Source: an uncultured Gammaproteobacteria bacterium
GTDB lineage: Bacteria > Patescibacteriota > Patescibacteriia > UBA10025 > JAHIVO01
Reading direction: 5' to 3'
NCBI GenBank assembly: GCA_964592105.1
Contig: CAZQBL010000007.1
Coordinates: forward strand, 58,013-122,012
Length of the DNA stretch: 64,000 bases
Each line of letters opens with the position of its first letter. The first letter of the stretch is position 1. The notes under the pieces were generated by a model, which was not told where the DNA came from, did no database searches, and was given only the letters and a program-made list of their open reading frames with translations. Below, in pieces: positions 24,251 through 62,045 of this stretch. A program made the translations under genes and the position numbers.

Positions 24251-25489
24251 TTACAATTGCGGATTTTGAACGGCCGCCACAAGCTTGCGCCTGACTGACT
24301 CCAGTAAGACCGCCGGCCCGGGCATATATTGATGGAATAACGACCGCGCTTCCCTGAGCTGCATGTCGAGCGCGGCACACACCGGTTTTTTGAAATTTTT
24401 CTCGTTGACTTTTTGTATCCGGCTGAGAATAACCGTAAAACCTTTATCGATTTTGGCAATCTCCGCCTCAATCAAGGTTCGGCGAGGCTTAAACTGTAAT
24501 TGGGTGATGTAGGTGATGAAATTTTCCAGATCGGTGCGAACTGCGCGCAACTTCAGTGATTCACGGCTAACTGACAAAGCCTGCCGAGCATAACCGAATT
24601 TCCGACGATCAATGTACCAGGCCGCTCGTTTTAATTCCTCGCGAAGATTTTTGTCGGGAAAAACAAACGGCTCAATTCTCAACTGGTCAAGTTCCGCGGC
24701 AAAAAACTTAAGCCGGCTGGAAACTTTTTTCTCAAGACCAGGATGCTTGACGAAATAAGCGCTTTCCAGATGCGGATACAAACGCTCAATAAAATCGCTC
24801 ACGGCCAGATGACGAAACTCCAATATCTCAATCAGGCTTTTCAAGGCTTGACGGCGGGCGGCCACCTGTGGTTCAATGCGAAAAATGGCATCCAGTCGTT
24901 CCTGCAAACGGCGGCGCAAGGCATCAACCTGGGATATTTTTGCTGAAGGGTTAACGCGCTGCCAACTGTCCAGCACCTGTTTTAAAATTATTGCCAAATT
25001 GCGCGCCTGGCGTTTCAACTCATCTCGCGGCTGAAGGCCTATTTGCTTGATCACCATATCGGCACTGGTCTCAACTTGGGAAAACAACTTATTTAAATTA
25101 CCTTTCCGCAAACCAATTAAAACATCATGCAAACGCTGAGTATGCTCCAGGGCCATTTGCAAAGCCTGTTTTTCTCCGGATTCAAAAGTCCGACCGTAAT
25201 TCTGGTGCAAGATATGCAGTGTCTGGCGCAAGGCGGTATAAACATCCGGAACAACTTGAAATATCAGAATATCCCCCGTGTATTTAATCTTCGTACGCGA
25301 TAAAGTCGTCTGCTCTAAAGCTTCATGGGCCAACTGGTTTTCCCAGAACGGCACGCCTATCTGGCCAGTCATTGGCGGGTCGATAAATAGCACCAATCCG
25401 GCTGGCAAACTTTGTGCCCGGACTTTTTTCACTTTCCCCACTCCCATCGAAATTTTAACATTAACAATACCGGTTCGGCTTAACATCAC
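24251..25489 (-). CDS. hypothetical protein (412 aa), unknown family
   Basis: Intact ORF, largely helical with Arg/Leu-rich repeats; no confident motif. Confidence 0.45.
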   Translation of the reverse strand: MMLSRTGIVNVKISMGVGKVKKVRAQSLPAGLVLFIDPPMTGQIGVPFWENQLAHEALEQTTLSRTKIKYTGDILIFQVVPDVYTALRQTLHILHQNYGRTFESGEKQALQMALEHTQRLHDVLIGLRKGNLNKLFSQVETSADMVIKQIGLQPRDELKRQARNLAIILKQVLDSWQRVNPSAKISQVDALRRRLQERLDAIFRIEPQVAARRQALKSLIEILEFRHLAVSDFIERLYPHLESAYFVKHPGLEKKVSSRLKFFAAELDQLRIEPFVFPDKNLREELKRAAWYIDRRKFGYARQALSVSRESLKLRAVRTDLENFITYITQLQFKPRRTLIEAEIAKIDKGFTVILSRIQKVNEKNFKKPVCAALDMQLREARSLFHQYMPGPAVLLESVRRKLVAAVQNPQL

Positions 25490-25610: not shown

Positions 25611-25988
25611 ATGCGAAAAAACCTGTATAAAATCATAGGATCAATGGCTACGATAGCCGCTTTCATATTATCGGCCAAAAATTCCCTGGCCCAGAAAGTT
25701 GAACTCCCCAGCGATCTCCAGCAATTCGCCACAGAAAACAGACTGACAACAGAAGGGCCGCAAGCTCTTACGGTTAGGACAATCCAGTGGATTTTGGGAT
25801 TTCTTGGGTTGGTAGCCGTTATAATGGTAATATACGGCGGTATAACCTGGATGACTTCGGCGGGCAATGAAAAAAAAATCACTCAAGCAAAACAAATTCT
25901 GACCTATTCGGTAATAGGCCTGGTTATAATACTTTTATCCTGGTCTTTCGTGACCTTTATTATCAGCAGACTCGACGAGTTTTCCTAA
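25611..25988 (+). CDS. small secreted two-TM protein resembling type IV secretion-system pilins (TrbC/VirB2-like) common in Patescibacteria
   Basis: Signal peptide (MRKNLYKIIGSMATIAAFILSAKNSLA) and two C-terminal TM helices flanking GGITWMTSAGNEKK. The start is taken at the internal Met 25611 because the upstream part of the track ORF overlaps the 24251..25489 gene. Confidence 0.4.
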   Translation: MRKNLYKIIGSMATIAAFILSAKNSLAQKVELPSDLQQFATENRLTTEGPQALTVRTIQWILGFLGLVAVIMVIYGGITWMTSAGNEKKITQAKQILTYSVIGLVIILLSWSFVTFIISRLDEFS

Positions 25989-26001: not shown

Positions 26002-28767
26002 CTAGAGAGCTTCGGCTCTTTTCACTGTTATCTTGCCGCCGGCTTCCAAAACCGCCACATCACGACGGCCGATTTTACCTTGCAAAAAATAAGTAGCCAA
26101 TGCATTATCAACATAATCCTGAATGGCACGCCGCAATGGTCTAGCACCAAAAACTGGGTCAAAACCAAGACGAGCTATTTCCTCCCGTGCCGCTGGAGTC
26201 GATTCCAACCGCACACCTTTAGCCGCTAAGCGTCCGGCGACCTGTTTCAACATCAGGTCTACAATCTGAATAATATGCTCCAAAGACAGTGGCCGGAAAA
26301 TAATGATATTATCGAACCGATTAAGGAATTCCGGGCGGAAATACGGTTTTAATTCTTCGTTCACCAATTCATCCTTGATGCGAGGCAAGGGAATATTTTC
26401 CAAAATTCGTTTCTGAATCAAGGCCGTGCCAGCATTGGAAGTGGCAATCAAAATCACGTTGGTGAAATCTATGGTCCTCCCAAAAGTGTCGGTCAAACGG
26501 CCGTCATCCATGACCTGCAGGAAAACGTTGAGAATGTCAGGATGGGCCTTTTCTATTTCATCGAGTAGAATCAAAGAAAAAGGTTTTGATCGGACGGCCT
26601 CGGTCAAATAGCCGCCTTCACCGGCCCCGCTGTAACCGGGCGGTGCGCCGATCAAACGATTTAAAGATGATTTTTCCTGATACTCGGACATATCCAGACG
26701 AATCATGCTATTTTCCGAACCAAAATAAACTTCGGCCACGGTTTTGGCCAGCTCGGTTTTACCCACGCCTGTCGGACCAAGAAACAAAAGATTGACAATT
26801 GGCCGACGAATGTCGCGCAATTCTGTCCTTGCCCGACGTAAAGCCGAAGCCACGGCTGCCACAGCCTCCTCCTGATCTACCATGCGCTCGTGAATTCTTT
26901 CTTCCATCTTTAATAACTTCTCCGTTTCTTTTTCCGTGATTTTCGTCATGGGCACGTTGGTTTTAGTGGAAATAACTTCAGCCACGTCTTCAGCGCTGAC
27001 CACAGAGTTAGTCCCCTTTTTCCGATGGACGTAAACAGCTACTTCTTCCAGTAAAGAAATGGCTTTATCCGGCAAATATCTTTCATGAATATACCGTTCT
27101 GACAGCTGGACCGTCTTGGCAATTGATTTATAGGAAAAATAAACTCGATTTTTGGCTTCAATTATCCCTGCTTTACCTTCCAAAACTAGAATAGCACCAT
27201 TGGTATCCGGTTCTTCAACCGAAACTTTCTGAAAAACCGAGGTTAGCAAGCTGCTGGGCTCAATATAGCGACGATAATCCAGAGGCGTGGTAGTGGCCAA
27301 GCAAAAAAACAATCTCTTTTGTAAAGCACTGGCTAGTATATCAGAAATATCCAGATTCTCGGCGCCTTCCGTGGAAACACCAACCATGTTCTGAATATTA
27401 TCAATAAACAAAACGATGTTGCCGGAACGGGTTATTTCGTTTATTAGCTGTAAAATTAACCCTTCCAGCTCGCCTTGCCGTCCAGCCGCTCCAACTAAAG
27501 AGGCAACAGACAAACTGACCAGCCGTTTATCCTGCAACGTCTCCGGCACTTCTTCCGAAGCCATGAGTTCAGCGATACCCTCGATGATACTGGTTTTACC
27601 CACGCCGGGATTGCCGCTAAAAATAACATTCTTGCCGCCTTCGATAATACGCAAGGCCTGTTCAATCTCTCTGTCCCGTCCGATACAGGGTGCCAGGACG
27701 CCGCGCCTGGCCAGCTGCGTCAGATCACGACTAAATCTGTCCAGAAGAGGCGTAGCCTGGGCAGTCATGGCCTTATTCATGCCGCCTTTGGATTTGTATA
27801 CGGCCTTACCGCGCCAGTGCTGCCATCTTTCCGCCAGTCGCTTCTGAATATTAAGCCACTCAACCACATTAGCTATTTCGTCCAATTCAATTTCCAAATC
27901 ATAAAATATTTCTCGCGAGGTTTCATCTATTTTCACCAAAGCCACCAGCAACTGCGGTATATCCACTCTAGACTGCCTGGACTGATAAGCTTCATAGTAA
28001 GCTGTTAATAAAACTTTTTTAAAATCAACTGATAGAGAAATGCTACCTTGGCTATAGGCGGGAATTTTATTCAGGCTTCTGGAAATTTTCTCTACTAAAG
28101 TCTTGCCATCGACTCCCAATCGGGCCAGGGCAGTTCTGGTCTGCGGCGCCGACAAAAGAACGGCCAGTAAGTGCAATGGTTTCGTAGTCTGATTCTTTAA
28201 CTGTCTGGACAACTGCCAGGCCTGCTCTACGAATCTTTGGGCACTGGAAGTATAAGTCGCCGATACGTCTATTATTTTTTTCTTATCCGCGGACACGGCG
28301 GTTTCAAAGAGAGCCTCGGGTGTCTCCAGGGTCAAGAGCGAATCAAACTGCCTGGATTTAACGCGCTTTTCCAGAATAGATTCCCGTTGCATCCGGTAAT
28401 AAGCGTATAAATCGGTCAGCAAGGTCACAGCAAAAATGGCCATGAGGCTGTTCCGTTCTTTCAGAAATCCCAAAAATCCAGAACTCAAATTATTAGAGGT
28501 TACAACGGTAACCACGGCAGCGGCAATTCCGATTACCCCAAACAAAATCAAAATGCCATTAATCATGGCTTTAACTGATCTCTCAATCTCACCTTCAAAA
28601 ATCCGCAAAGCGTCGACTTTTCTGCTCCAATATAAAATATCCCCTTCTAACCAGGCCATTACGCCTTTCTCTCCGCAACGTCGGCACGAACCCTGATTAT
28701 CAAAACCAGCCCCCTGGCAAAAAGGACACGTTAATATGACAAAATTTTTACCCGTCTTCTCGGCCAT
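26002..28767 (-). CDS. ClpC/ClpA-like double AAA+ chaperone ATPase with an N-terminal zinc ribbon and two TM helices
   Basis: N-terminal CPFC...CRRC zinc ribbon, two hydrophobic helices (~res 60-110), Clp_N-like repeats, AAA-1 GNPGVGKT and AAA-2 GPTGVGKT Walker A motifs, sensor and ClpB_D2-small C-terminus. Confidence 0.8.
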   Translation of the reverse strand: MAEKTGKNFVILTCPFCQGAGFDNQGSCRRCGEKGVMAWLEGDILYWSRKVDALRIFEGEIERSVKAMINGILILFGVIGIAAAVVTVVTSNNLSSGFLGFLKERNSLMAIFAVTLLTDLYAYYRMQRESILEKRVKSRQFDSLLTLETPEALFETAVSADKKKIIDVSATYTSSAQRFVEQAWQLSRQLKNQTTKPLHLLAVLLSAPQTRTALARLGVDGKTLVEKISRSLNKIPAYSQGSISLSVDFKKVLLTAYYEAYQSRQSRVDIPQLLVALVKIDETSREIFYDLEIELDEIANVVEWLNIQKRLAERWQHWRGKAVYKSKGGMNKAMTAQATPLLDRFSRDLTQLARRGVLAPCIGRDREIEQALRIIEGGKNVIFSGNPGVGKTSIIEGIAELMASEEVPETLQDKRLVSLSVASLVGAAGRQGELEGLILQLINEITRSGNIVLFIDNIQNMVGVSTEGAENLDISDILASALQKRLFFCLATTTPLDYRRYIEPSSLLTSVFQKVSVEEPDTNGAILVLEGKAGIIEAKNRVYFSYKSIAKTVQLSERYIHERYLPDKAISLLEEVAVYVHRKKGTNSVVSAEDVAEVISTKTNVPMTKITEKETEKLLKMEERIHERMVDQEEAVAAVASALRRARTELRDIRRPIVNLLFLGPTGVGKTELAKTVAEVYFGSENSMIRLDMSEYQEKSSLNRLIGAPPGYSGAGEGGYLTEAVRSKPFSLILLDEIEKAHPDILNVFLQVMDDGRLTDTFGRTIDFTNVILIATSNAGTALIQKRILENIPLPRIKDELVNEELKPYFRPEFLNRFDNIIIFRPLSLEHIIQIVDLMLKQVAGRLAAKGVRLESTPAAREEIARLGFDPVFGARPLRRAIQDYVDNALATYFLQGKIGRRDVAVLEAGGKITVKRAEAL

Positions 28768-29274
28768 TTATTTAAATAATATATTTACGCCAGCCAACTG
28801 GTACAAAATAAATAAAATAATCACCACAGGCAAAATCAGCCAAGCCAGGAAAAGAATTATTAAAAATATCAGCCAAAAAATCATCTGAATTAGTTTCCAT
28901 AAAAGCACAATTACGCGCATGAAACCGCTGATGATGCGGCCCTCAATGGTGTAGTCGCCATACATCGGTTTAAAAATATTGCTGATCCAAATACCCAAAG
29001 CCAAGCGTCTGTTAATTTGAAACTGGATGCTTTCTAAACAATATCTACCGATACGTGCCGTTCCTTTGGTGTACCACCACACAGGAAAATAAATAATATC
29101 CCACAGCACCTCAATAAATATGTATTTAATGGTGGCCACTAAAATGTTATCGTTCATGAGTATTTTTTGTAAATAACATCTTAATTGTAACATATTTTTT
29201 CGATTTTGTCCAGATAAATATTCCAGGCAAGTATTCAGCATCACCATATAATGGAGGTATATGAAACAGACCAA
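28768..29274 (-). CDS. polytopic membrane protein of unknown function, translationally coupled to the Clp-like ATPase
   Basis: Its TAA stop is immediately followed by the ATG of the downstream gene (TAAATGGCC); hydrophobic throughout. Confidence 0.35.
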   Translation of the reverse strand: MVCFIYLHYMVMLNTCLEYLSGQNRKNMLQLRCYLQKILMNDNILVATIKYIFIEVLWDIIYFPVWWYTKGTARIGRYCLESIQFQINRRLALGIWISNIFKPMYGDYTIEGRIISGFMRVIVLLWKLIQMIFWLIFLIILFLAWLILPVVIILFILYQLAGVNILFK

Positions 29275-30396: not shown

Positions 30397-31128
30397 TCAT
30401 TGATTTTTATTAAGTTCGTCGTCGATGATTTTCTTGAATTCACTCAGCGATCTCGCACCCTCCACCTTCTGATCATTAATGAAGAATGTTGGTGTTGCCG
30501 TGACTTTATTGCTGCGCCCCACGGCCGTATCACTGAAAACCTCAGATCTCATCTGGTTGGAATCAAGGCATGATTTCATTACCTCCGAACTGATACCAGC
30601 CTGGGCGGCATAGCTTTGAAATTTTTGAACAGGATCGCTGGCACTCACCCATTCGGACTGATGCGAGAAGATAATATCGTAAAACTCCCAAAATTTTCCC
30701 TGATTATAAGCACATTCGCCGGCTTCCAGAGATTTTTCCGACCATTGATGTCCGATATTATAGCTATTAAAGACAATTCTAACTTGTTCGGGATAGATTT
30801 TGGCTATTTCCTTGACTATCGGAGCTGCAACCGCGCAGGCCGGACAGCTAAAATCAGAAAATTCGACTATAGTCACCTTGGCCGTTTCACTACCCAAGGT
30901 CGGATTGCCACTAACAGCCGCCAATAGATCGGTGTTGGTGTTATTACCGTTTGAGTCTGTAACAGCCAAGTAAACAAGCCCGCCGACTACTATGACTACG
31001 ACACAGATGACAATAACGGTGGCCATCTTTCTGCGTCGGTAGCGCTGGTTTCTTTGATCATCGATTGCCTGCTTTTTCAGCTCGCGTCGCTGACGCTTGG
31101 TTAGGCGCTGATCAATTTGATCTTCCAT
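30397..31128 (-). CDS. DsbA-like thiol:disulfide oxidoreductase, membrane-anchored
   Basis: N-terminal charged segment and TM helix; thioredoxin-fold active site FSCPACA; DsbA-like helical insertion. Confidence 0.7.
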   Translation of the reverse strand: MEDQIDQRLTKRQRRELKKQAIDDQRNQRYRRRKMATVIVICVVVIVVGGLVYLAVTDSNGNNTNTDLLAAVSGNPTLGSETAKVTIVEFSDFSCPACAVAAPIVKEIAKIYPEQVRIVFNSYNIGHQWSEKSLEAGECAYNQGKFWEFYDIIFSHQSEWVSASDPVQKFQSYAAQAGISSEVMKSCLDSNQMRSEVFSDTAVGRSNKVTATPTFFINDQKVEGARSLSEFKKIIDDELNKNQ

Positions 31129-46513: not shown

Positions 46514-47706
46514 TTACCTGCTTAGTGGTTTGAATATCTTCCGGTATTCAATCAGTAGATACGAACCTATAAGCAGCGTGCCAACTCCTAGCATAATCAA
46601 GGCCACTGGCAAATTTACAACTTTTAAAACAAGGCCGAAAATTCCCAAAAACACGAACTGGGCCAGAGCATCAACCGCCCACTGCACGGAACTGACCGTG
46701 GCGCGGCGTTCTGATTCCAAATGATCATTCAGATACTGTCCCATAAATGGACGCAAATATCCTCTCGTTACATTCTGGAATAAAACCAGCCAGACCATGG
46801 GCAGAATCGTCAGGGCGCCCATTAAAATGATGGGCAAAGCGGTGATCAGGACCATTACAGTAAAACAGGTCATTGGTCCAAAGCGCTTAGCTATCTCATG
46901 GGCAAAATAACTGAAAAAAGCAGCTACAACGTTCAGGGCGAAGAATATCCAACCATAATACTCAAGCGGCAATGACACCAGTTCGAAATAAGGATTGTAG
47001 GTAAAAACCATACTTTTCCAATCACGCCCAATAAGGCAGTGTAGAGGATTATCCATTTAACCCGTTTGTTTTTGGCCACAAATAATACGGACAACTTCAT
47101 TATATCCTGGATTTTTTTCTTGGCGATGTCCTTGTCGGTACGCGGTGGTTCAACCATGAAACAAATAATTATGCAGGTGGCCAATAAACTTGGGATCCCC
47201 AATAATACAGGTAAGCGGATATTGGTCGCGGCTAAATATCCCGCCACCGGCGAGGCCAAAGAGAACAGCAAAAAACGATAAGCATTAGACCTGCCGTCAA
47301 CCAATTTATAATGATCACTCCTTTGCTGGGTAGCCAAAGTATCGTAAAGCAGTGCGGAGTCGGCTCCAGTAATCAGAGAAAAGCCAAAGGTCCACAGAAT
47401 GTTGGCGATCCAAATTTCCTGGGAACTACGAGCCAAGCCGAACATTAAACAATCCCCCAACAGCAGAATACTTCCCGCCAGCATAGTTTTCTTCCTGCCG
47501 ATTAAATCCGCAATTGCCCCCGTGGGAATCTGCAGAACAAACAGTAAAATTACACAGACCGATTCCATCTGATAGATTTGTGCCAGGGACATGGCAGAAA
47601 CTTTTTGAATGTAAATGATCAATACCGGCCCCCAAAACAGCGGCTCCCTCAATGCTTGATAGAACTTATACAGCAAGACATTACTCTGTACTTGTCGCAA
47701 ATTCAT
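46514..47706 (-). CDS. MFS transporter, reading frame interrupted by a single-base shift at an A5/T5 run (47007-47011)
   Basis: Two overlapping ORFs (46933..47706 and 46514..47056) encode the N-terminal 7 TM and C-terminal 5 TM of one MFS protein. Reading T6 instead of T5 on the coding strand gives ...GKVWFFTYNPYFELVSLPLEYYGW... Confidence 0.55.
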
Positions 47707-57491: not shown

Positions 57492-59099
57492 TTATGCCTT
57501 GTTACCAAGTCCGAGAAGATTCAAAATCTTATCGATATCCGGTACAGCGACAAGGTTAATACTCGTGCCCTGCAAGGCCTTGGCCATTTCAGCCAATGGT
57601 TTATCGCCAAAGACTAGAAACTTAAGGTAAGGCCCCACCTTCTTCACATCATCATCAGTAATCTTAGCCATGGCTTGACTCTTGGCTTCAAATTCGGCCA
57701 AGATCTTCGCCTTATTGGCTTCTGCCTCACCCCGACCTTTCAGTATAATCGCTGCTTTTTCGCCTTCAGCCTCCTTAATTCTGGCCTTGGCTTCAAAAGC
57801 TTTCTGATCAATCTGGACCTTTGAAATGGCCTTCTTGTCTAGTGCCGAAACCATGGCTTCGGTGGGTTTTACGCCCCTGACCACTACGCGTTCAAACTTA
57901 ATACCCAAATACTGCAAATCATCCTTGAGTATCTGGTTTAGCTCTTCAGAAAGCCCGTCACGCATTGTCAGGGCTTCCTCCAGACTGCCAATCCCACTGG
58001 CGACGTAGGCCCGGACAAACGAGGCCACCTTATCACCGATGAGACCCAACATCAGTTTTGAACTACCATCTTCGGAAATACGGGTCGTTTCTTCCAGTTT
58101 TGCCTTGATATCCCAGTACGAGGTTCCTAGTTCCGTGACCACGTCCCAAATCTTATCAAAGTGATAAGCAATGGAGGTGTCCACCTCAATCGATTGCGAT
58201 TCATCACCGATGATTATCACGTTCTCCGGAACCATATCATAGTACTGCACGGCTAGAGGGAGTTTAACTAATGAACCTAATTTCCAGGGCACCAAATGAG
58301 GTCCACGATCAACTTCTTCATAGGGCATACCCATAAAAAATTTGATGCCTTTTTCGGTGTTTCCGACCAACCTGATACTTAAAAACAGGTAAAAAAATCC
58401 AGCCGTGCCAAAGAATATCAAAAAAATCAAGGTGTAGGGACCAAAAACCCAATCGGTCTTTTCCAGTCTTAACACAAACCATATTAAAGCGGAGATAATA
58501 ACCAGAACCCCGGCAATCATTATTGGAAATAGCCCCTTTTTTACGTACTCACGTTGGGCCTCCCTTTTTTCTTTCTTCAACTTACGGAAGCCCTCGATTT
58601 CAACTACTGTCTTTGCTCCACTGATACCGGTACTGGTAATCGTTCCGCCTTCACGGTACGCTTCCATAACATTCTCGTTAAATTTCTCCAGCTCACTTTG
58701 GCAGTCTGCTATCTCTTTTTCAAGTTTGGTAATTGCGACGGAGTCTGACTTTCTCCTTTTTTCTTTTTTTAGGGCCTTCTTTCTTCGGAGCTCATTATTC
58801 AGTTTTCTCTTGGACTCAAACAATTTTTTTCTTAGCAAATCGTAATTTTTCTGCTCCTTTCGAAACCCCCGTTCCAGCTCAAGAATTTTATCATTCGTAT
58901 CTTTGATGGCCTTTTTGCCTAGTAGAGCCACCTTCCACCAATGAATAATCGCAGTAATTGAAAACAGTACAACATTCATCAAAAGATAGACCGGCCAGCA
59001 CCAGTCACAGCCGGTAGCAATAACTCCAATTAACCCAATGGCTGAAAGGGCAATAGCTACCCAGAAAAACGACTTGAAGAACTTATTTAAAGCTTCCAT
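57492..59099 (-). CDS. SPFH/Band-7 (flotillin/stomatin-like) membrane protein with a long coiled coil
   Basis: N-terminal TM helices, a K/E-rich coiled coil, further TM helices, then an SPFH core (...FERVVVRGVKPTEAMVSALDKKAISKVQIDQKAFEAKARIKEAEGEKAAIILKGRGEAEANKA). Confidence 0.7.
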   Translation of the reverse strand: MEALNKFFKSFFWVAIALSAIGLIGVIATGCDWCWPVYLLMNVVLFSITAIIHWWKVALLGKKAIKDTNDKILELERGFRKEQKNYDLLRKKLFESKRKLNNELRRKKALKKEKRRKSDSVAITKLEKEIADCQSELEKFNENVMEAYREGGTITSTGISGAKTVVEIEGFRKLKKEKREAQREYVKKGLFPIMIAGVLVIISALIWFVLRLEKTDWVFGPYTLIFLIFFGTAGFFYLFLSIRLVGNTEKGIKFFMGMPYEEVDRGPHLVPWKLGSLVKLPLAVQYYDMVPENVIIIGDESQSIEVDTSIAYHFDKIWDVVTELGTSYWDIKAKLEETTRISEDGSSKLMLGLIGDKVASFVRAYVASGIGSLEEALTMRDGLSEELNQILKDDLQYLGIKFERVVVRGVKPTEAMVSALDKKAISKVQIDQKAFEAKARIKEAEGEKAAIILKGRGEAEANKAKILAEFEAKSQAMAKITDDDVKKVGPYLKFLVFGDKPLAEMAKALQGTSINLVAVPDIDKILNLLGLGNKA

Positions 59100-60875: not shown

Positions 60876-62045
60876 TTGAGCAAAATTACCCTCACTGCCA
60901 TCAAGGCAGACATCGGCAGCATCGGCGGACACATAAAACCCTCACAAGCAATTCTGGAAGCGGTCAGAACGGCTATTGGCGAAGAAAAGGCGATAACAGA
61001 CTTCCGCATCACCTACACTGGCGACGATATCCTGATACTCATGGCGCATCATGAAGGGATCAACAGCTGGGTTATCCATGCGGCCGCCGATCGTGTTTTC
61101 CGCCAAGCCACGGAAATTGCCAAACGACAGGGCTTGTACGGGGCCGGTCAGGACCTTTTGACCGACGCTTTTTCCGGAAATGTCAAAGGTGCGGGTCCCG
61201 GAATCGCCGAGATGGAATTCGAGGAAAGGCCAAATGAGGCCTTTATCGTCTTCGCCGCGGACAAAACCGATCCCGGTGCTTACAATCTGCCTTTGTACCT
61301 GGCTTTCGCCGATCCCATGTACAACGCCGGCTTACTACTGACCGCGCACATGCAAAAAGGCTTCACTTTTTCCATCATCGACGTCAATTACGCGGAATGC
61401 AAGCAATGCGGAAAATTCCATTTTACCGATCAGCGCTGCGCTGAGGCCACGGCTAACAACCCCAAAGGCGACCGGCTCATAAAACTGTCGGCGCCCGAGG
61501 ACATCTACAAAATCGCCGCTCTGCTCCGCGACGGCGAAAGATTCGCCATCCAGTCCATCCATTCCCGATATGATGGTTCCCAAGCTGCCTCTGTCTCCAC
61601 CACCCGGCTCCACAACATCGCCGGCAAATACACAGGTAAGGACGATCCGTGCGCCATTGTTCGGGTCCAAGGCTCATTTCCAGCGACGGGAGAAGTGCTT
61701 TCCCCCTTTGCTCTGGGACATTTGGTGGGCGGCTTCATGCGCGGTTCGCATAACGGCCCGCTGATGCCGGTAAAACAAAATGAGATTATTTCCTTTTTCG
61801 ACGGCCCGCCGATTGTTTCCTGCGCCGCTTACTGCGTCAAGGACGGCAAGCTGACCGAAGCTGTTGATGTTTTTGACCACCCCGTATGGCACTATATCCG
61901 CCAGGAAGTTGCCCGCAAGTCAGTGGATATCAGACGTCAAGGATTCTTCGGTGCGGCCATGCTGCCCATGACCGAGCTTGAATATGGCGGCATTGTCGCC
62001 ATCCTCCAATCTCTTGACACACAGTTTGAGATTGTTCCAAGCTAA
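60876..62045 (+). CDS. fbp: fructose-1,6-bisphosphate aldolase/phosphatase (class V FBPase, bifunctional)
   Basis: TTG start after AAGGAGG. The N-terminus SKITLTAIKADIGSIGGH...GDDILILMAHHEG...LYGAGQDLLTDAFSGNVKGAGPGIAEMEFEE matches the archaeal-type FBP aldolase/phosphatase signature (KADIGS..GH, Y..GQDL.SD.FSGN..G.GPG.AE). The gene is ~54% GC against ~40% in its flanks. Confidence 0.85.
   Translation: MSKITLTAIKADIGSIGGHIKPSQAILEAVRTAIGEEKAITDFRITYTGDDILILMAHHEGINSWVIHAAADRVFRQATEIAKRQGLYGAGQDLLTDAFSGNVKGAGPGIAEMEFEERPNEAFIVFAADKTDPGAYNLPLYLAFADPMYNAGLLLTAHMQKGFTFSIIDVNYAECKQCGKFHFTDQRCAEATANNPKGDRLIKLSAPEDIYKIAALLRDGERFAIQSIHSRYDGSQAASVSTTRLHNIAGKYTGKDDPCAIVRVQGSFPATGEVLSPFALGHLVGGFMRGSHNGPLMPVKQNEIISFFDGPPIVSCAAYCVKDGKLTEAVDVFDHPVWHYIRQEVARKSVDIRRQGFFGAAMLPMTELEYGGIVAILQSLDTQFEIVPS

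Follow-up and report, generated by a model that had tools for sequence, protein, structure and literature searches.

A 64-kb stretch of contig CAZQBL010000007.1 from an uncultured Patescibacteriota bacterium (the whole 64,000 nucleotides [nt] that were analyzed, hereafter the window) carries on its reverse strand a gene for an Hsp100/Clp-type AAA+ ATPase, which follows directly on a gene for a small membrane protein, here called the partner. We hold with moderate confidence that the region is a two-gene operon encoding a membrane protein of 129 amino acids (aa) and a membrane-integral, ClpP-independent AAA+ ATPase of the Hsp100/Clp family. The original prediction, made from the DNA letters alone, described a membrane-anchored ClpC-like unfoldase coupled to a hydrophobic upstream protein; the feature is confirmed to be real and is corrected here in detail. 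Whether the ATPase is a membrane-tethered remodeller of membrane or envelope proteins that is independent of proteases and driven by its second AAA+ module (D2) is, in our estimate, evenly balanced. A full-text literature search found no description of a membrane-anchored Clp/Hsp100.

A conserved pair of genes

From its N terminus, the ATPase consists of a CxxCxGxG...CxxC zinc ribbon, a transmembrane (TM) helix (TM1), a second hydrophobic helix, Clp_N, and the two AAA+ modules D1 and D2. The features of the pair are as follows.

29184..29212, minus strand: promoter-like site TGGACA-17 nt-TACAAT with TG-extended -10 (consensus match)
28768..29157, minus strand: partner gene, 129-aa small membrane protein (length and homologues)
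26002..28767, minus strand: anchored Hsp100/Clp-type AAA+ ATPase gene (921-aa open reading frame [ORF], Pfam, NCBIfam, PDB-sequence comparison)
28675..28728, minus strand: putative zinc ribbon, DnaJ cysteine-rich type, residues 14-31, CPFCQGAG...CRRC (conserved Cys, weak Pfam)
28498..28569, minus strand: TM helix 1, residues 67-90 (Kyte-Doolittle, Hessa scale)
28396..28449, minus strand: second hydrophobic helix, putative TM2, residues 107-124, LMAIFAVTLLTDLYAYYR (conservation, charge pattern)
27808..28254, minus strand: Clp N-domain, residues ~172-320 (PF02861 match 185-232, ClpC alignment)
26908..27735, minus strand: D1 AAA+ module, residues ~345-620, predicted to be catalytically degenerate (ClpC alignment, orthologue motif counts)
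26053..26907, minus strand: D2 AAA+ module and D2-small domain, residues ~621-905, canonical motifs (Pfam, ClpC alignment)

The junction of the two genes reads ...TTT AAA TAA/ATG GCC..., with 0 nt separating stop and start, just as had been proposed. The length of 168 aa originally given for the upstream product is the maximal open frame counted from the first TTG; the gene starts at the ATG at 29157 and encodes 129 aa. We prefer the shorter product for the following reasons: (i) the identical 129-aa protein and 35 homologues of 109 to 143 aa, mostly about 130 aa, exist in public collections; (ii) in a public gene call made independently on an identical 35.7-kb contig, the partner again has 129 aa (and the ATPase 921 aa); and (iii) the promoter-like site, which has 10 of 12 consensus matches and the TG, lies 27 nt 5' of the partner ATG, inside the supposed extension. 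Judging from its match to the consensus, this site may serve as a promoter.

Relatives of the partner are encoded in at least 585 GTDB species genomes, of which the best 80 loci from a partner profile search were examined. Essentially all of these 80 are Patescibacteria (Kerfeld-, Falkow-, Magasanik-, Buchanan-, Jackson-, and Komeilibacteria and other “Patescibacteria group” metagenome-assembled genomes); a few records bear placeholder-looking or mis-binned names. In the 80 loci and in three more from a protein index, the partner is directly followed by a Clp orthologue of about 920 aa that resembles the window ATPase from residues 1 to 14 onward, and the gap between the two genes is -20 to +12 nt (64 of 78 loci). 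The partner adjoins an anchored Clp in nearly all of about 75 informative species loci, the sole informative exception being locus L060, where RuvA follows the partner, and the pair are the only genes common to all loci. The small upstream membrane protein, whose conservation beside the ATPase had been left as a question by the original prediction, is thus conserved and tightly coupled. Because the whole arrangement recurs in dozens of species, it is not due to chance.

Long antisense ORFs, such as the one at 27416..27847 (plus strand), recur opposite the Clp gene in 40 to 57 loci. They mirror the conserved coding sequence of Clp and are not genes.

The N-terminal zinc ribbon and hydrophobic helices

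The four cysteines of the predicted zinc ribbon (C14-P-F-C17-Q-G-A-G...C28-R-R-C31) are invariant across 34 aligned orthologues, which bears out the ribbon first proposed from the window copy alone. Among the 69 full-length orthologues that also underlie the motor-motif counts given below, 64 keep both CxxC motifs and 5 have lost the ribbon. A search of zinc-ribbon families found PF00684 weakly in 25 of the 34 aligned orthologues (best E = 2e-4), along with Anti-TRAP in 17 and BSD2_CRD in 6; the window copy, which has one exact CxxCxGxG (C14 to G21) and one CxxCGEKG, stayed below threshold, with no Pfam match at E <= 1. By its CxxCxGxG signature and these weak matches, the ribbon may be weakly assigned to the DnaJ cysteine-rich type, to which BSD2 and Anti-TRAP are also counted. 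The DnaJ domain has two zinc centres, whereas the anchored Clp has one. ClpX and ClpE likewise carry a Cys4 zinc ribbon at the extreme N terminus; in contrast to these proteins and to DnaJ, the ribbon of the anchored Clp is followed by TM helices.

TM1 is the sole strongly hydrophobic segment anywhere in the 921-aa ATPase. At about residues 72 to 90, the Kyte-Doolittle 19-mer maximum is 2.78 and the summed Hessa insertion energy (dG) is -2.5 kcal/mol, and the dG of TM1 is below 2 in 68 of the 69 orthologues. The second helix (residues 107 to 124) is the best-conserved stretch of the N-terminal module, with F112, Y124, and R125 invariant or nearly so. Across the 69 orthologues, the segment preceding TM1 has on average 3.2 Lys plus Arg, the loop 1.7, and the segment following TM2 4.3, a pattern that agrees with an in-out-in hairpin leaving both zinc ribbon and ATPase body on the cytoplasmic side. 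Because of this charge distribution, and because the ATPase must stay in the cytoplasm to work, insertion of helix 107-124 into the membrane is probable. Of the two TM helices that had been called, then, the first is strong, while the second is only marginally hydrophobic.

The module is confined to this Clp family, since residues 1 to 175, run with phmmer against all of 1.84 billion cluster representatives, gave 94 matches, each at the N terminus of its protein, and the complete proteins among them are 888 to 963 aa long, barring one of 1231 aa. Searches for homologues that started from the N-terminal 186 aa or from a profile of 34 sequences gave nothing but short N-terminal fragments. No homology between the module and the partner was detected (hhalign probability, 1.3%). 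The extension is conserved at the protein level down to 14 to 30% identity. The original prediction had allowed for a mis-called start, with the extension missing from orthologues; the module is present in them, and thus the extension is genuine; membrane tethering of the ATPase is supported.

A degenerate D1 and an intact D2

Pfam places Clp_N at residues 185-232, AAA at 381-494, AAA_lid_9 at 524-618, AAA_2 at 655-821, and ClpB_D2-small at 827-901. The Clp N-domain aligns to residues 6-150 of Staphylococcus aureus ClpC with a 12-residue insertion; a conserved insertion specific to the family lies around N300-V301-W304.

The protein had been taken for a full double-AAA+ ATPase. This does not hold for D1, in which Walker B Glu, Arg fingers, and pore Tyr are all missing. 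In the window copy, Walker A is GNPGVGKT, Walker B is FIDN, with N457 in place of the Glu of ClpC (FIDE), the Arg-finger pair is replaced by S510-V511 (TSVFQ versus ERRFQ in ClpC), and the pore loop is GRQG (KYRG in ClpC). The Walker B catalytic Glu occurs in 0 of the 69 orthologues and a Walker A GK[ST] in 26, and the Arg fingers and the pore Tyr are missing across the whole set. By its motifs, D1 is predicted to be a pseudo-ATPase ring that is catalytically dead; with its intact GNPGVGKT, the window D1 could still bind nucleotide.

D2 has the canonical motifs, which in the window copy are GPTGVGKT, LLDE737, a pore loop GY712SG, sensor-1 TSN, an Arg finger in FLNRFD, and sensor-2 GARPLRR. Walker A is kept in 68 and the Walker B DE in all 69 orthologues, among which sensor-1, the Arg finger, and sensor-2 are conserved as well. 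D2 is accordingly placed as the predicted only motor of the ATPase.

Relationship to known Clp/Hsp100 families

All the Pfam models that mark Hsp100/Clp class I (PF00004, PF17871, PF07724 [5e-63], PF10431, and PF02861) match above their cut-offs, and Clp_N, D1, D2, and the D2-small domain come in the same order as in ClpA, ClpB, and ClpC. The assignment as ClpC/ClpA-type goes too far. In a comparison with PDB sequences, ClpC (516 bits) and ClpB (509 bits) score alike, the strong similarity sitting in D2, which is up to about 50 to 60% identical to ClpC/ClpB D2 over more than 320 residues. Scores with the NCBIfam models are far below the cut-offs: the best is ClpB TIGR03346 with 660 bits in two separate stretches (cut-off, 1232), followed by ClpA TIGR02639 with 556 bits (993), ClpK with 534 (1900), ClpV/TssH with 519 (885), and ClpG with 512 (1900). 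No type VI secretion system genes were seen in the window.

The anchored Clp differs from ClpA, ClpB, and ClpC in the added zinc ribbon and TM hairpin and in the lost D1 residues. It also lacks the M-domain that ClpB and ClpC have: of the 67 residues that separate D2 from the D1-small domain in ClpC, about 58 are without a counterpart, and residues ~396-463 of Bacillus subtilis ClpC align with just about 9 residues of the ATPase. Whereas ClpA and ClpC have an IGL/VGF loop for ClpP, the corresponding region reads QKR--ILENIP-----LPRIKDE opposite ClpC KRNKYVGFNVQDETQNHKDMKDK, 7 residues shorter and with no tripeptide. The original prediction had named an IGF/LGF docking loop and a ClpP gene as things to look for. 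An IGF/VGF loop was found in 0 of the 69 orthologues, and ClpP is encoded neither in the window nor in 86 loci, whole genomes being outside this scope. Peptidase_M41 does not match either, and the ATPase ends with the Clp D2-small domain. The likeness to an FtsH-type tethered unfoldase therefore stands for the membrane tethering and for the Clp/Hsp100 chassis, with no protease domain or protease partner evident. On these comparisons, the ATPase is neither ClpA, ClpB, ClpC, nor FtsH.

Public records list the orthologues under “ATP-dependent Clp protease ATP-binding subunit,” “AAA family ATPase,” “Clp R domain-containing protein,” or “hypothetical protein”; shortened N termini (855 or 861 aa) occur in some of these deposits. 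We also considered an anti-phage defence ATPase. It was ruled out because PADLOC gave no specific system model or partner proteins; D2 is only generically similar to PDC-M37B and DolB, the partner has no match, and the context is one of housekeeping genes.

The partner membrane protein

The window copy of the partner matches nothing in Pfam, NCBIfam, or PADLOC. When 20 homologues were searched against Pfam, the best stray match had an E value of 0.003 in one member, and no family was found in more than 2 of the 20. Invariant motifs are YFPVWWY.KG (residues 23-32), KPM(Y/F)G (63-67), GRIIS..MR (73-81), and W106/P110. Hydrophobicity is only moderate in residues 5-29, the part from 30 to 88 is strongly basic (about 8 Lys/Arg versus about 2 Asp/Glu), and residues 89-122 form an uncharged, C-terminal hydrophobic stretch of 34 residues.

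An AlphaFold2 model from 20 sequences (mean predicted local distance difference test score [pLDDT], 87.8) has helices at 5-52 and 71-122, about 50 residues each, with a conserved loop between them, and shows no significant match to the PDB (best E value, 2.5). From this model and the charge pattern, the partner may be read as a basic cytoplasmic helical hairpin with a C-terminal hydrophobic anchor, which would be either a tight hairpin or one long helix across the membrane and on which the amphipathic N-terminal helix may pack. With a single 34-residue hydrophobic stretch, the polytopic topology originally proposed is not established.

Gene context in other lineages

Upstream of the pair, mraZ (PF02381), rsmH (PF01795), and a gene for a 114- to 126-aa protein are found in 23 to 27 of 83 loci, which belong to a Magasanikbacteria-type group and a second group; FtsL models match the 114- to 126-aa product with scores under their cut-offs (E values of 1e-7 to 5e-5). 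Downstream, on the same strand, a PF00953 WecA/MraY-family transferase follows in 27 of the 64 loci with enough sequence, often after a gap of 0 to 25 nt, and in 6 of 13 sequence groups (groups less than 50% identical to one another). In other loci, the downstream gene is FtsW/RodA or VanW. Because of this synteny in other clades, we favor a role in the cell envelope or in division over one in secretion.

In locus L041 (2118..9087), as well as in L028, L052, and about 25 other loci, the pair lies within the division and cell wall (dcw) cluster of Magasanikbacteria-type genomes, in the order mraZ, rsmH, FtsL-like gene, partner, Clp, WecA/MraY-family transferase (or a small protein plus FtsW, or VanW), DUF192. 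In locus L022 (4231..7935), an ORF of 1234 aa fuses a zinc-ribbon-less Clp in frame to a PF00953 transferase that is without its first TM helix. This is a single sequence, to which the 1231-aa representative match (P0092) is identical; it may be an assembly or frameshift artefact and was not used as evidence.

In the sequence group of the window, the upstream genes are PgpA, a GNAT-like gene, and a DsbA-like gene, and a pilin gene of the type IV secretion system (T4SS) type converges on the pair from downstream. In the window, this T4SS_pilin gene (PF18895, 114 aa, 25644..25988, plus strand) has a signal-peptide-like N terminus, and 13 nt lie between its stop codon and that of the Clp gene, an arrangement that recurs in 13 related loci, all of the window's sequence group. 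Being convergent and confined to one clade, the pilin was ruled out as a functional partner, and the association with secretion raised in the original prediction loses its support.

Proposed mechanism and its rivals

In the proposed mechanism, the ATPase would form a hexamer. An in-out-in helical hairpin would join the cytoplasmic zinc ribbon to the cytoplasmic ATPase body and would hold the substrate-entry face, formed by the N-domain and D1, against the inner surface of the membrane. D1 would bind nucleotide at most and act as an assembly ring, and D2 would be the motor. The basic cytoplasmic hairpin of the partner would dock on the ATPase, while its hydrophobic tail would join the TM ring. 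The machine would then pull or remodel membrane-embedded or membrane-associated clients and not degrade them; the synteny in other clades suggests proteins of cell-envelope biogenesis or cell division as likely clients. We infer both the physical contact between partner and ATPase and the action on membrane-embedded or envelope-related clients without proteolysis. A more specific version, in which the partner and Clp of ABY1-type Patescibacteria form a hexameric membrane-protein dislocase or assembly factor with a single active ring for the division and envelope machinery (FtsL/FtsW or phosphoglycosyl-transferase complexes), is offered only tentatively and is rather doubtful.

Several observations weigh against a tethered, D2-driven remodeller. 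(i) The canonical D2 pore loop G[YFW]xG is present in only 13 of the 69 orthologues, and the corresponding D1 loop in none of the 69. Most orthologues have a deletion of 4 to 6 residues in the D2 pore loop and have lost the pore Tyr. Because so few keep the loop, threading is not a family-wide mechanism, unless other residues grip the substrate. (ii) Helix 107-124 is marginally hydrophobic, with a dG of more than 3 in the window copy and a family median of 2.8. (iii) An AlphaFold2 model of ATPase residues 1-275 from 7 sequences was unusable (pLDDT, 47.6). (iv) There are no dcw or transferase genes in the 64-kb window, and its clade is without such neighbours. (v) Clp Asp119 and partner K/R88 do not covary, K/R88 being kept regardless of the Asp. 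(vi) Lineages without the zinc ribbon retain all partner motifs.

Two candidate contacts between the proteins were dropped on the same data: a TM salt bridge between Asp119 and K/R88 is not supported, as the two do not covary, and nothing suggests the zinc ribbon as a docking site for the partner, which is unchanged where the ribbon is lost.

The window's sequence group retains the D2 pore loop in 12 of 19 members, and the window copy has GAPPGYSG. Canonical aromatic gripping would hence be open to the window copy and not to most of the family; likewise, processive unfolding is plausible for the window copy and not for the family as a whole. In loci L004, L023, L024, L028, and others, the deletion aligns with window residues 707-719. 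Many of the deletion-bearing orthologues have a Tyr five residues upstream (S-I-Y-R-L-I-G) that is without counterpart in the Tyr-retaining clade and may compensate for the lost pore Tyr.

The main rival is a non-threading, ATP-driven switch or scaffold, in which conformational cycling of the D2 ring would drive the gating or assembly of a membrane complex (the partner, a phosphoglycosyl transferase, or divisome proteins) with no translocation of polypeptides. The deletion of the D2 pore Tyr and the absence of a D1 pore Tyr favor it for most of the family, where the partner, the TM module, and the D2 ATPase motifs have been kept despite that loss, and the tight linkage to WecA/MraY-family, FtsW, and FtsL-like genes agrees with it. 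However, GAPPGYSG in the window's clade argues for substrate gripping at least there, and the remaining translocation-related elements of D2 are conserved. Taken over the whole evidence, we regard such a switch as possible and on the unlikely side.

Disaggregase, export motor, and mis-annotated soluble ClpC are successively less likely, in that order. A general disaggregase or chaperone localized to the membrane, that is, a stress protein like ClpB or ClpG tethered in very small cells, would account for ClpB being the best-scoring NCBIfam model (660 bits), for a zinc ribbon of a type found in proteins that bind non-native polypeptides (the DnaJ cysteine-rich type), and for a ClpP-loop region in D2 as long as that of ClpB. 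However, the score is half of the ClpB cut-off, there is no M-domain for coupling to Hsp70, D1 appears to be dead whereas disaggregases use both rings, and an obligatory membrane partner and envelope-gene synteny are unexpected for a general chaperone. We think this explanation improbable.

Still less probable, by a wide measure, is a motor for protein export or secretion like the Plasmodium HSP101-EXP2 translocon, feeding, e.g., the T4SS-type pilin through a partner channel. It draws on the pilin gene 13 nt past the Clp stop in the window and the 13 related loci, yet that gene is on the opposite strand and restricted to one sequence group, the N-terminal anchor would, by Hsp100 architecture, put the entry face and not the exit face of the ring at the membrane, and the partner model is a simple helical hairpin that matches no channel. 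An ordinary soluble ClpC/ClpA subunit of the ClpP protease with its start codon called too far upstream, as some public names and the 855- and 861-aa records would have it, is scarcely credible given an extension with invariant Cys, F112, Y124, and R125 at 14 to 30% identity, an ATG that abuts the upstream stop, no IGF/VGF loop in 69 of 69 orthologues, and no ClpP in the window or the 86 loci.

Other features of the window

The window is an ordinary chromosomal region of Patescibacteria, with an F-type ATP synthase, several aminoacyl-tRNA synthetases, tgt, recO, and PgpA. A membrane-anchored DsbA/Thioredoxin_4 protein is encoded two genes upstream of the pair (30397..31128, minus strand), and its gene is also near the pair in loci L003, L018, and L019. 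Beyond the pilin gene, an ORF of 412 aa (24251..25489, minus strand) matches no Pfam family; it has homologues likewise beyond the pilin genes in L003, L081, and L083. A 535-aa protein (57492..59099, minus strand) belongs to the SPFH/Band 7 family, which includes membrane partners of FtsH in other bacteria; its gene is not next to the Clp pair. Overlapping ORFs of 180 and 257 aa (46514..47706, minus strand) both match MFS_1 and resemble a single gene broken in two by a frameshift or a sequencing error. Finally, a 389-aa protein (60876..62045, plus strand) matches PF01950 FBPase_3 (E = 3e-145), the class V type of fructose-1,6-bisphosphatase, which is best known from archaea and deep-branching bacteria.

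Comparison with membrane-bound AAA+ machines and implications

FtsH, also a bacterial AAA+ protein, is held in the membrane by two TM helices at its N terminus and turns its substrate-entry face to the membrane. The anchored Clp resembles it in its membrane anchoring by N-terminal helices and probably in the orientation of the entry face. In FtsH, a single AAA module is joined to an M41 zinc protease, and the two TM helices are separated by a sizeable domain outside the cytoplasm, whereas the anchored Clp combines two Clp-type modules with a loop of about 17 residues between the helices and has no protease domain. Msp1/ATAD1, PEX1-PEX6, and Cdc48/p97 are AAA+ extractors, tethered or recruited to membranes, whose substrates are not degraded by them; in PEX1/PEX6 and p97, a weak or inactive D1 ring is combined with a D2 motor, and a small tail-anchored protein (PEX15/PEX26) keeps PEX6 at the membrane. 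These machines differ from the anchored Clp in being eukaryotic members of the classical AAA clade, with no sequence relationship to it beyond the AAA+ fold. By analogy of mechanism only, the anchored Clp may be functionally comparable to PEX1/PEX6, Cdc48, or Msp1, the last of which is described as a membrane-anchored AAA+ extractase (PMC12793716).

If the dislocase reading were true, bacteria would have a counterpart of Msp1 or PEX1/6 in the anchored Clp, which would also be the first Hsp100 integral to the membrane. Hsp100/Clp ATPases are known from textbooks as soluble machines. A lineage-wide Clp that is built into the membrane, has lost the chemistry of one ring and the dock for a protease, and relies on a new small membrane protein would widen the range of the family. 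The current public annotation of the orthologues, with its Clp protease naming and truncated starts, is misleading. The sister clades with and without the D2 pore-loop Tyr amount to a natural experiment on a Clp ring that cannot grip in the usual way. For the Patescibacteria, whose tiny cells and reduced genomes go along with a poorly understood envelope and division biology, the pair would add a candidate factor that handles membrane, divisome, or envelope proteins.

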